From an uncultured delta proteobacterium (lineage in GTDB: Bacteria > Desulfobacterota > Desulfobacteria > Desulfobacterales > JAFDCJ01), in NCBI GenBank assembly GCA_963769935.1, contig CAVYNY010000011.1, positions 1 to 64,000 on the forward strand: a DNA stretch of 64,000 nt. The letters run 5' to 3'. The notes below the pieces were generated by a model. The model worked only from the letters and a program-made list of their open reading frames with translations, did no database searches and was not told the DNA's origin. The stretch's first letter is position 1. Each line of letters opens with the position of its first letter. This document shows, in pieces, positions 56,208 through 59,226 of this stretch. A program made the translations under genes and the position numbers.

Positions 56208-57380
56208 ATGGTTAAACTACTTCGCCAAGGCAATGTTTTCGCCCCGGATCCTCTGGGTAAGAAAGATATCCTAATTTTGGGAAATAAGATTGGGGCAATC
56301 ACCGAGCCGGGCCAAATAAAGATAGAAGGAATTGAATTTCAAGACCTAGATGCCTCGGAAAAGATTGTTGTTCCGGGATTCATCGACAGCCATGTTCATA
56401 TAACCGGAGGCGGCGGAGAAGGAGGGCCAGCCACAAGAGCACCTGAAATAGCTGTTGAAGATATCATTTCAAGCGGTGTGACAACTGTTATCGGATGCCT
56501 TGGAACGGATAGTGTGACACGTCACATGGAATCTCTTCTGGCTAAGGCCAGAGGCCTGGAAAAAGAAGGCGTCACAACCTTTATTTTTTCAGGTTCCTAC
56601 GAAATTCCCCCCAAAACAATCACCGGAAGCATCCGATCCGACCTCGTCCTCATCGATAAAGTCGTAGGGGCGGGAGAAATAGCCATCTCCGACCACCGCT
56701 CCTCCCAGCCCTCCTTTGAGGAAGTGGCCCGCCTGGCTGCCGATTGTCGCGTGGGAGGCATGCTCGGTGGCAAGGCTGGTGTGCTCCATTGTCATATAGG
56801 CGATGGACCGCGACGTTTGGGGATGCTTTTCAGGCTGATCAAAGAAACAGAAATTCCTGTCACCCAAGTCATCCCGACCCATGTCAACCGCAATCGACAA
56901 TTACTGGCGGAAGCCATGGAGTTTGTCCTGGCCGGAGGATTCATAGACCTTACCGCCAGCGGCGATTCCGAGCCTCTGGACAAGCAGGGAGTATCGATAG
57001 AAGATGCGGTGGCCCTCTTTCTTGAAAAACAGATTCCTTTAGACCACATCACCATAAGTTCAGACAGCAACGGCAGCCTTCCCGTCTTCGACGAAAAAGG
57101 GGAGTTGCTGGGCTTGACCATCGCCACCCAGAAGGGCCTCATAGCAAAGTTTCGAACCCTGGTCCAAAAAGATATCTTGAGTCTCCAGGATGCTCTAAAG
57201 CTCTTTTCCACCAATCCTGCCCACTTCTATAAGTTGAATCAAAAGGGAGAAATAAAGGCAGGAAAGGATGCTGATCTTCTTATCCTCGACAAAAATTTCA
57301 ATTTGACAGACTGCTTTGCCATGGGACGCAGGATGTTGGCGGAGGGCCGATTAATTGCTAAAGGCACCTTCAGCCCTTGA
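56208..57380 (+). CDS. iadA: Isoaspartyl (beta-aspartyl) dipeptidase
   Basis: IDSHVHITGGGGEGG; CLGTD; GEIAISDHRSSQP; SSDSNGS. Confidence 0.95.
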   Translation: MVKLLRQGNVFAPDPLGKKDILILGNKIGAITEPGQIKIEGIEFQDLDASEKIVVPGFIDSHVHITGGGGEGGPATRAPEIAVEDIISSGVTTVIGCLGTDSVTRHMESLLAKARGLEKEGVTTFIFSGSYEIPPKTITGSIRSDLVLIDKVVGAGEIAISDHRSSQPSFEEVARLAADCRVGGMLGGKAGVLHCHIGDGPRRLGMLFRLIKETEIPVTQVIPTHVNRNRQLLAEAMEFVLAGGFIDLTASGDSEPLDKQGVSIEDAVALFLEKQIPLDHITISSDSNGSLPVFDEKGELLGLTIATQKGLIAKFRTLVQKDILSLQDALKLFSTNPAHFYKLNQKGEIKAGKDADLLILDKNFNLTDCFAMGRRMLAEGRLIAKGTFSP

Positions 57381-57541
57381 CAGGAAGGAAAAAAGTGAAG
57401 GCGGATCATCAGCGCCTGCGTTTTTTCGAAATCCAAGGGACTTATTTGAATTGAATCCGCAGTTTTGATTTTTTCTAACGCATACTTATATTCTAATTAA
57501 TCCGCCCTGAATAGCAGCTTCCATCAACAGGCAAAAATAAA

Positions 57542-58404
57542 ATGAAACATATTAAACCCGCCGGAGATCAACCGACCGGAATTTATACAGTGGCTGATCG
57601 TTGGAAACTTATGATGTTGCTGTGTTTGGCAGCTATAGGCATAGGTTTGGCGATCAGCGCCTGTGATTTCCGCAAGGGTCATGCTTCGGCCGAAACAAAC
57701 ACTAGGAAAGACAGCAACATGGAATCAACACAATTGGCCAAAACCATTCAATATAAGATACCGCCCATCGATGCCGCGGCTCCAGCCGAGATTGTAACCG
57801 CAACCTTCGCGCTGGGCTGATTCTGGGGACCCGACTCCCGGTTCGGGAGTATGGAAGGCGTCGTCAGAACTCGTGTCGGATATGCCGGCGGTCAGAAAAA
57901 AGACCCCACCTATCACAGCCTGGGAGACCACAGCGAAACGATCCAGATTGATTATGACCCGGCCCGCATATCGTACCGGAAGCTGCTGTCCATTTTCTGG
58001 CAGAGCCATGACCCAACGTCGCGTGCCTGGAGCCGGCAGTACATGTCGGCCATATTTTACCACAATGATGAGCAGCGAGAGCTGGCCCTTGAAACGAAAG
58101 CCTTCGAGGAAAAACAGAGAAACAAAAAAATCCAGACCGAAATTGTGCCGTTCGAGCGTTCTACCTGGCGGAAGATTATCATCAGAAATATGAGCTGCGA
58201 GGGCATAGTGATCTGATGCGGGAATTTAAGGCCATGTATCCCCGGGACATTGATTTTATCAATTCCACTGCCGCCGCCCGGGTCAACGGCTATCTCAGCG
58301 GCTACGGCAGCCCCGAAGAAATGAAAGCAACCCTCGAACACCTGGGCTTATCGACTGCGGCCCAGGAGCGGCTGTTGGCCAATTCCAATAAGTGGAAAAA
58401 TTAA
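57542..58404 (+). CDS. msrA: Selenocysteine-containing methionine-S-sulfoxide reductase with predicted lipoprotein signal; UGA=Sec at 57818-57820; -1 frameshift near 58159
   Basis: TATFALG-U-FWG (MsrA GCFWG motif); RTRVGYAGG; rejoined FYLAEDYHQKY; STAAARVNGY tail; lipobox ISAC. Confidence 0.88.
57834..57850 (+). promoter_or_regulatory. Bacterial SECIS-like hairpin
   Basis: ACTCCCG-GTT-CGGGAGT, 13 nt after the UGA, with GU in the apical loop. Confidence 0.75.
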
Positions 58405-59226
58405 TTATACGAAAAAGTCCGGCATCAGGTCAGCGTTCGGATCGACGGCGTAGCTGCTGAGATCCGTCAGGCCCTCTGCCTGCAGGACGGCCTCGTCGAC
58501 AAAAAAATTGCCGGTGCACTCACGGCTTGGTTTGGTTAGAATCGCGTGGGCGGCGTCCGCCAGGATCTCGGGCCTGCGCGAGGCCCGAACCATCTCTTCG
58601 CCGCCGAGCAGGTTGCGTACGGCTGACGTTGCGATGGTCGTGCGCGGCCACAGGGCGTTGACCGCTATTCCCCGGGACTTCAGTTCCTCAGCCATTCCGA
58701 GAACACACATGCTCATACCGAACTTGGCCATGGTGTAGGCGACATGCGGTGCGAACCATTTGGCCTCCATGTTAAGCGGCGGCGACAGGTTTAAAATGTG
58801 CGGATTTTCCGCCTTTTCGAGGTGTGGAATGCATTTTTGCGAACACAGAAATGTGCCGCGCGTGTTGACCTGGTGCATCAGGTCATAGCGCTTCATCGGG
58901 GTCGAAACCGTGTCCGTCAGGTGGATCGCGCTGGCGTTGTTTACCAGGATATCGATTTGGCCGAATGCTTCAACCGTCTTGGCCACCGCAGCTTCCACCT
59001 GGTCCTCGAAGCGGATGTCCACCACGCAGGCCAGGGCCTTGCCGCCGGCGGCTTCGATCTCCTCGGCGGCGGTATAAATCGTTCCCGGAAGCTTCGGATG
59101 CGGATGAGTTGTTTTGGCTGCAATGGCAATCCTGGCGCCGTCTCTGGCGGCCCGCAATGCGATTGCCTTGCCGATGCCGCGGCTGGCGCCGGTAATGAAC
59201 AGGGTCTTGCCTTTCAGATCGCTCAT
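58405..59226 (-). CDS. Short-chain dehydrogenase (HSDL2-like)
   Basis: ITGASRGIG; HPKLPGTIY; NNASAI; YTMAK; NALWP. Confidence 0.93.
   Translation of the reverse strand: MSDLKGKTLFITGASRGIGKAIALRAARDGARIAIAAKTTHPHPKLPGTIYTAAEEIEAAGGKALACVVDIRFEDQVEAAVAKTVEAFGQIDILVNNASAIHLTDTVSTPMKRYDLMHQVNTRGTFLCSQKCIPHLEKAENPHILNLSPPLNMEAKWFAPHVAYTMAKFGMSMCVLGMAEELKSRGIAVNALWPRTTIATSAVRNLLGGEEMVRASRRPEILADAAHAILTKPSRECTGNFFVDEAVLQAEGLTDLSSYAVDPNADLMPDFFV

Follow-up and report, generated by a model that had tools for sequence, protein, structure and literature searches.

A predicted selenocysteine-containing MsrA with a putative lipoprotein signal peptide and a candidate second start in an uncultured delta proteobacterium

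The window analyzed here is a 64,000-nucleotide stretch of DNA from an uncultured delta proteobacterium. Desulfobacterales and uncultured deltaproteobacteria make up many of its best named relatives, so that the host probably belongs to the Desulfobacterota. An msrA gene, predicted to encode a selenoprotein, lies on its forward strand between a gene for isoaspartyl dipeptidase (56208-57380; TIGR01975), another damaged-protein function, and a convergent SDR gene (58405-59226, minus strand). The stop codons of msrA and the SDR gene abut with zero gap (58402-58407), and no terminator-like site was found at this junction. In at least one close relative, the dipeptidase gene is not linked to msrA (loose contig end before 57463). 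The promoter scan returned 2 sites where 1.1 were expected, and the terminator scan was likewise at chance level. Two RNA runs belonging to a single study yielded contigs, derived from relatives about 92% identical, that covered 57486-58552, which by itself does not establish expression; a 3.7-kb contig over selA came from one of the same two runs. The features of the locus were as follows.

57465..57492, plus strand: sigma70-like promoter candidate, 9/12 matches, not above chance
57542..58404, plus strand: msrA selenoprotein gene (predicted), 287 aa counting one missing base near 58155
57542..57664, plus strand: predicted lipoprotein signal peptide with a long basic n-region, a hydrophobic stretch, and a lipobox
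57665..57760, plus strand: variable linker from the lipid anchor to the catalytic domain, mean column identity 0.47 over residues 42-59
57719..57721, plus strand: internal ATG (Met60), candidate start of a 228-aa cytoplasmic form; upstream sequence purine-rich and unstructured, weak Shine-Dalgarno (SD)
57797..58190, plus strand: MsrA catalytic domain (PF01625), 125 bits
57818..57820, plus strand: in-frame TGA, predicted selenocysteine (Sec) 93, at the catalytic Cys position, GUFWG
57834..57850, plus strand: putative upper stem-loop of a bacterial SECIS, 7 bp, G-first loop
58153..58158, plus strand: very likely one base lost in the assembly; an additional C follows 58155 in near-identical short-read contigs
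58216..58401, plus strand: CoMsrA-type helical domain at the C-terminus, with the PF20939 match at 58261-58356

The original prediction had joined three open reading frame fragments (57542-57820, 57851-58216, and 58216-58404) into one repaired MsrA. The gene is real, and the first two fragments do form a single frame, linked by the TGA at 57818-57820 (codon 93) within F-A-L-G-[TGA]-F-W-G. The third fragment, however, lies in another frame across a one-base gap near 58155, a frameshift that had been left unstated. In the assembly, the frame from 57542 runs for 92 codons, meets the TGA, and continues through MsrA to about residue 205; the F-Y-L-A-E-D-Y-H-Q-K-Y motif and a 62-residue tail follow in a different frame that ends with TAA at 58402-58404. 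All five contigs that crossed 58153-58158, from four short-read runs, carried net one additional base. Two of these were near-identical to the window and had a C after 58155, but they reached just about 21 letters past one side of the break; the other three, from relatives about 92-94% identical, spanned it fully, and under a bridging rule of 31 letters these three of the five, all from relatives, counted. The assembly (8.0 Mb, 41 contigs) contained similar errors in selA (G000:C22:678107-679600; L001, L002), which was spread over three frames by three single-base extra letters absent from short-read contigs, and both EF-Tu matches on C22 were in pieces. Genes that look broken in this assembly should not be trusted to be pseudogenes. 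The complete homologues of msrA within the genus had an open frame of 282-287 aa, mostly 287 aa, and no lesion other than the one near 58155 was found in the gene. Because all five crossing contigs carry the extra base and selA shows similar errors, the frame break is very likely an assembly error, and the sequences leave us confident that msrA is intact in the cell. Gene callers split genes of this kind at the UGA, by which the signal peptide is lost; here a presumably false frameshift adds to the problem.

The closest solved relative of both parts of the protein was CoMsrA of Clostridium (Alkaliphilus) oremlandii (PDB 4LWJ, 4U66, 4W8C, 7C13; PF01625 + PF20939), with E values of 2.5e-42 for the catalytic domain and 5e-7 for the helical domain (CoMsrA 133-202); the PF20939 match itself was marginal (24.4 bits against a cut-off of 23.7). 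GUFWG and the equivalents of Tyr47 and Glu55 are common to both proteins, with U93, Y124, and E132 matching Sec16, Tyr47, and Glu55 of CoMsrA, and the F-Y-x-A-E-D-Y-H-Q-x-Y motif of the catalytic domain falls after the frame break. The likeness extends to a single Sec, the lack of a resolving Cys, and the C-terminal helical domain (as described for CoMsrA in PMC4333827 and PMC4479559), the very resemblance that had been proposed. In fact, no Cys was found in residues 42-204 or in the 81-residue downstream frame, in agreement with the proposed Cys-free catalytic domain; Cys occurs solely at residue 28, in the hydrophobic stretch, and at residue 41, in the lipobox. Sec93 is the sole predicted redox residue of the mature enzyme, and the protein is predicted to be a one-Sec MsrA of CoMsrA type. 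Among the 19 close homologues, three of which are cut by contig ends, 18 had no Cys after the Sec position, and L023 had one near its C-terminus. Four helical-domain Sec-MsrAs (L023:1411-2280, L061, L070, and L077) end in a short Cys-bearing tail (C-A-P, C-P-V, C-P-V, and C-P-L, respectively), the Cys of which is a possible resolving residue, although the family is described as having none. In the accounts of CoMsrA given in PMC4333827 and PMC4479559, the oxidized residue is attacked by glutaredoxin, or a dimer forms that glutaredoxin resolves, while thioredoxin is inactive; the helical domain is essential, and its loss inactivates the enzyme.

The TGA at 57818 aligned with the catalytic Cys16 position of CoMsrA (4W8C and 7C13), and a near-identical short-read contig (57300-57841; sole differing letter at 57697) shows TGA, not TGC or TGT. 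The 19 best non-self matches among 61 genomes all had one TGA at the catalytic position (19/19). At the order level, PF20939 was present in 40/301 genomes; in 30 helical-domain loci, some of them shared with the 19 close homologues, the motif could be read in 26-27, and 25-26 had TGA and 1 had TGC (the set includes one locus with a Cys MsrAB-type motif or none and 3 loci in which the first pass detected no motif). One TGC version (L158) has kept most of the SECIS-like hairpin sequence. The 7-bp hairpin expected after the TGA lies at 57834-57850, with a 3-nt GUU loop beginning 20 nt past the UGA, and it matches the bSECIS model as published in PMC13188914: a small loop with an early G, a distance of 16-37 nt to the UGA, and an MFE of -7.5 or lower. 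The segment 57818-57870 folded at -23.6 kcal/mol (z -2.67; 4/200 shuffles as good), but folding energy by itself is weak evidence for a SECIS, because three comparison windows gave z values of -0.16 to -1.70. Across 43 distinct sequences, the 7 pairs were paired in 88.4% of cells, with 28 compensatory cells and a covariation of 0.27; these values were reached by 0/500 shuffles, a test inflated by the relatedness of the sequences, and all six slid controls were lower. Independently of the shuffle test, synonymous divergence was 0.26 in codons 94-106 against 0.64 in codons 107-200.

The genome also contains the expected machinery, namely tRNA-Sec (selC), selA, selB, and two selD genes, all over cut-off, and both selD genes carry an in-frame TGA. 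On this evidence the UGA at 57818 is very likely decoded as selenocysteine, and the protein is almost certainly a Sec-MsrA. At least 8 further genes of the genome have an in-frame TGA (L048-L051, L054, L058, L005, L006): the two selD, four peroxiredoxin/redoxin-like genes, one signal-bearing U-x-x-C thioredoxin-fold gene, and one UXX-star glutaredoxin-like gene. Both tRNA-Pyl and tRNA-Sec were detected (G000:C11:285724-285797 and C3:6328-6425), and the genome may use both rare amino acids, Pyl and Sec.

The hydrophobic stretch of the leader (peak hydropathy 2.81) ends in the predicted lipobox I-S-A-C (57653-57664), with Cys41 at 57662-57664 and Asp at position +2. In 13 ungapped genus copies, leader codons 1-59 contained stops in frame in 0/13 and in each other frame in 13/13; dN/dS was 0.34-0.44 over the leader, with 0.34 for the signal core. 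The invariant residues were Met1, Arg20, and Cys41. Cys41 was moreover invariant in 17/17 aligned proteins of five families. We consider the leader to be translated, because it has no in-frame stops, dN/dS values below 1 of the constrained type (0.34-0.43), and an invariant lipobox Cys. The assignment as a lipoprotein is pattern-based (basic n-region, hydrophobic stretch, lipobox Cys, and Lgt and LspA in the genome), and lgt and lspA are accompanied by tatC. The proposal of an exported, membrane-anchored selenoenzyme is supported by this translated leader under coding constraint, by the invariant lipobox Cys, and by the presence of lgt and lspA; in all likelihood the long form is made and lipidated. 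Under the enterobacterial rule, Asp at +2 leads to retention in the inner membrane.

The twin-arginine site is degenerate in this copy (R-W at 57599-57604), whereas R-R is found in 11/14 genus copies; the copy lacks the Tat motif, though tatC is present, and its core is more hydrophobic. Considering R-W in place of R-R together with the more hydrophobic core, the long form is probably exported via the general secretory translocon, and the relatives with R-R possibly export theirs by Tat. A hydrophobic signal was found in 52 of 66 distinct Sec homologues (37 of these with a lipobox); 5 had none, 6 had R-R and a lipobox under the hydrophobicity cut-off, and in 3 the upstream stretch was too short to score. 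Export is the predicted norm in the family as sampled by these 66 homologues, and the cultured Desulfosarcina alkanivorans (L064) has the same layout as the window.

A start at ATG 57719 had been taken to refute export. This either/or did not survive the comparison, since the internal ATG is itself conserved, with an SD signal across the order. It stands 33 codons before the UGA in 14/14 genus copies, while 0/18 of the preceding linker columns are invariant and dS is above 1. Its SD was -4.2 kcal/mol in the window, against -2.5 at the first ATG (57542) and a background median of -3.0 for internal ATGs; within the genus, the SD before the internal ATG reached -6.5 or stronger in 1/14 and -5 or stronger in 6/14. 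Both ATG 57542 and ATG 57719 lie in unstructured RNA, unlike ATGs 57611 and 57614. A linker ATG was present in 41/52 signal-bearing homologues, in 38 cases at a distance of 30-43 codons upstream of the UGA, and absent from 11/52. Linker ATGs with an SD of -6.5 or stronger occurred in 25/52 signal-bearing homologues versus 2/51 predicted lipoproteins of this genome (32/52 versus 6/51 at -5); the Fisher p of 2e-7 for this comparison is overstated, as the homologues are kin, the control is a single genome, and two rows (L136 and L061) are doubtfully parsed. All 25 strong-SD linker ATGs came from outside the genus of the window. AGGAG or GGAGG recurs at canonical spacing in varied peptide contexts across the order, which points to selection on the RNA. 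In view of these patterns, it seems somewhat probable that the short cytoplasmic form is also made in this organism, that is, that both starts are used. The signal-bearing Cys MsrA/MsrAB paralogues (L007, L023, L029-L038) had a linker Met in 11/12, 15-20 codons before the catalytic Cys and mostly with a weak SD, and two starts may be a general feature of Msr genes in the order.

As had been suspected, no reductant appears to be encoded in the window: genome-wide searches for the DsbD/CcdA, redoxin, and glutaredoxin families had no hits on its contig. Candidate reductants are encoded elsewhere in the genome. They include a DsbD-like gene at C13:152257-154149, CcdA beside a TlpA/ResA-like gene (C28:5190-6573), and further exported TlpA-like proteins. 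Two other candidates carry a signal, namely a thioredoxin-fold protein with U-x-x-C (C13:167132-167707) and a protein whose glutaredoxin-like domain contains C-P-Y-C (C38:118199-118708); another, the UXX-star selenoprotein at C1:152388-152603, is cytoplasmic. The Cys MsrAB on C13 (L007), which bears a signal, would need periplasmic electrons as well. The same contig, C13, carries a run of signal-bearing redox genes (G000:C13:165050-167707; L054, L046, L052) for U-x-x-C thioredoxin-fold, peroxiredoxin-like, and C-x-x-C thioredoxin-fold proteins. The U-x-x-C gene of this run had a TGA in 15/15 genus matches, most other families being stop-free, and its product is a predicted second exported selenoprotein.

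Gene neighborhood and co-occurrence singled out no partner, in 25 loci and 60 relatives, respectively. In the 25 loci, a BLAST clustering of 262 ORFs and a Pfam scan of 59 chosen neighbors showed no reductant gene recurring beside msrA; the genus loci, which extend 1.5 kb on each side, lie outside this count. MsrB was near msrA in 3 loci and fused to it in a fourth (L072), and a DsbD_2/cupredoxin protein was near one msrA copy, itself signal-less. The fused locus, L072:311-1510 (Halanaerobium), encodes a Cys form with a signal, and its sequence continues into an MsrB-like domain. Among the 60 relatives, an exported Sec/Cys thioredoxin-fold protein was present in 14/19 with MsrA versus 18/41 without, and a Uxx-star glutaredoxin-like protein in 15/19 versus 18/41; within the genus, the counts were 10/13 versus 5/9 and 9/13 versus 5/9. 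Kinship and the incompleteness of the genomes leave all these counts uninformative. Recycling fed by DsbD or CcdA via an exported thioredoxin- or glutaredoxin-fold protein is a proposal whose chances we regard as evenly balanced. CoMsrA was not reduced by thioredoxin in the work described in PMC4333827, which argues against a TlpA-type partner.

Taking the locus as a whole, we lean slightly towards an intact msrA whose UGA is read as Sec and which is predicted to give two products: a periplasmic, lipid-anchored one when translation begins at ATG 57542 and a cytoplasmic one when it begins at ATG 57719. SelB, acting on the hairpin at 57834-57850, would insert Sec for both starts. The long form would be exported, lipidated at Cys41 by Lgt, cleaved by LspA, and, with Asp at +2, probably held at the inner membrane. 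By analogy with CoMsrA biochemistry, Sec93 would attack methionine-S-sulfoxide, releasing Met and leaving Sec93 oxidized; because there is no resolving Cys, an outside thiol or selenol would then have to attack the oxidized Sec93, or a Se-Se dimer would form and be reduced. For its recharging, the long form would most likely depend on DsbD or CcdA acting via an exported protein of thioredoxin or glutaredoxin fold; the short form would use a glutaredoxin-like protein of the cytoplasm.

Alternatively, the gene may yield the exported lipoprotein Sec-MsrA and nothing else, Met60 being an ordinary linker residue or the relic of an ancestral start that preceded the signal and is unused here. The SD before ATG 57719 is indeed weak here, as it is in most genus copies, and 11/52 signal-bearing homologues lack a linker ATG. 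However, the ATG is invariant in 14/14 genus copies in an otherwise free linker with dS above 1, the order as a whole shows canonically spaced AGGAG/GGAGG within many different amino-acid contexts, and the Cys paralogues also have the linker Met (11/12); we therefore treat this reading as possible but doubtful. Translation from 57719 with an upstream "signal" that is never made would fit the slightly stronger SD at that ATG (-4.2 against -2.5) and the leaderless CoMsrA, which is served by a cytoplasmic glutaredoxin. It is nevertheless very unlikely, given a leader open in 13/13 copies with stops in both other frames, dN/dS of 0.34-0.44, invariant Met1 and Cys41, and hydrophobic signals in 52/66 distinct Sec homologues, with 6 more that have R-R and a lipobox below the cut-off.

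The remaining two alternatives concern the integrity of the gene and the meaning of its TGA. This strain could carry msrA as a pseudogene, with a real frameshift near 58155 that removes the Y-H-Q-K-Y motif and the helical domain: the assembled frame does break after residue 205, and the two near-identical contigs fall short of the strict bridging rule. Against this highly improbable case stand the net extra base in 5/5 crossing contigs, the three single-base errors of selA, the EF-Tu matches in pieces, and the lack of a second lesion in msrA. Nothing specific favors a TGA that is a true stop, beyond the fact that gene callers end there, or one read as Trp or Cys under an altered code. The conserved TGA coincides exactly with the catalytic Cys position and is followed by a covarying SECIS in a genome with tRNA-Sec, selA, selB, and selD, while the upstream isoaspartyl dipeptidase gene terminates at an ordinary TGA; both versions can practically be discounted.

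CcdA is linked to the Etrx/MsrAB2 surface system of Streptococcus pneumoniae. That Etrx/CcdA/MsrAB2 system resembles the predicted one in its extracytoplasmic methionine repair by membrane-anchored proteins (as outlined in PMC3914529), but it is Cys-based and its partner, a thioredoxin-fold lipoprotein, is known, whereas none is linked to the window's msrA. CoMsrA differs in being leaderless, with 209 aa and Sec at residue 16; the protein of the window has 92 residues before Sec, comprising the lipoprotein signal, the linker, and the second candidate start, and the cytoplasmic glutaredoxin that reduces CoMsrA could not reach its long form. A likeness in design is offered by PilB (MsrAB) of Neisseria, where one msr gene gives periplasmic and cytoplasmic Msr forms by internal reinitiation at the AUG of Met195, and the periplasmic form is fed by DsbD, as reported in PMC6210582; for the window the two forms are predicted. 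PilB, however, is a Cys enzyme that has a resolving Cys and carries both an MsrB domain and an N-terminal thioredoxin-like domain of its own, whereas PF01625 and PF20939 were the sole matches in the window protein, which has no thioredoxin-like or MsrB domain.

Exported bacterial selenoproteins as such are already known, and the MsrA enzyme family and its chemistry are characterized. Periplasmic Sec formate dehydrogenases and hydrogenases exist. A signal-bearing predicted ABC substrate-binding selenoprotein has also been described (bioRxiv 10.1101/2022.07.06.499078). Sec-MsrA is listed, with 2 sequences, for the Olavius algarvensis symbiont metagenome, which is rich in selenoproteins of deltaproteobacteria, in a study that centers on a deltaproteobacterial symbiont using both Sec and Pyl; the main text of that study contains "signal peptide" 0 times, and no description of export of the enzyme was found there (PMC1976440). 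An exported or two-start Sec-MsrA was not found in the literature searched, a scope that excludes subscription papers and supplements. What is likely new here, judging from the sequences, is the predicted exported form of the CoMsrA-type family together with the two-start design.

Tentatively, we hypothesize that a widespread clade of one-Sec MsrAs in anaerobes uses two starts and one SECIS to place the enzyme on the periplasmic as well as the cytoplasmic side of the inner membrane. The periplasmic form would require an extracytoplasmic route of recycling, because it lacks a resolving Cys and cannot be reached by the cytoplasmic glutaredoxin; if the hypothesis is true, this route would be an undescribed one, for example through an exported Sec- or glutaredoxin-fold partner. 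One gene would then supply each compartment with its own isoform of a bacterial selenoprotein, and this raises the question of how a one-Sec MsrA type that rejects thioredoxin in C. oremlandii may be recycled outside the cytoplasm.
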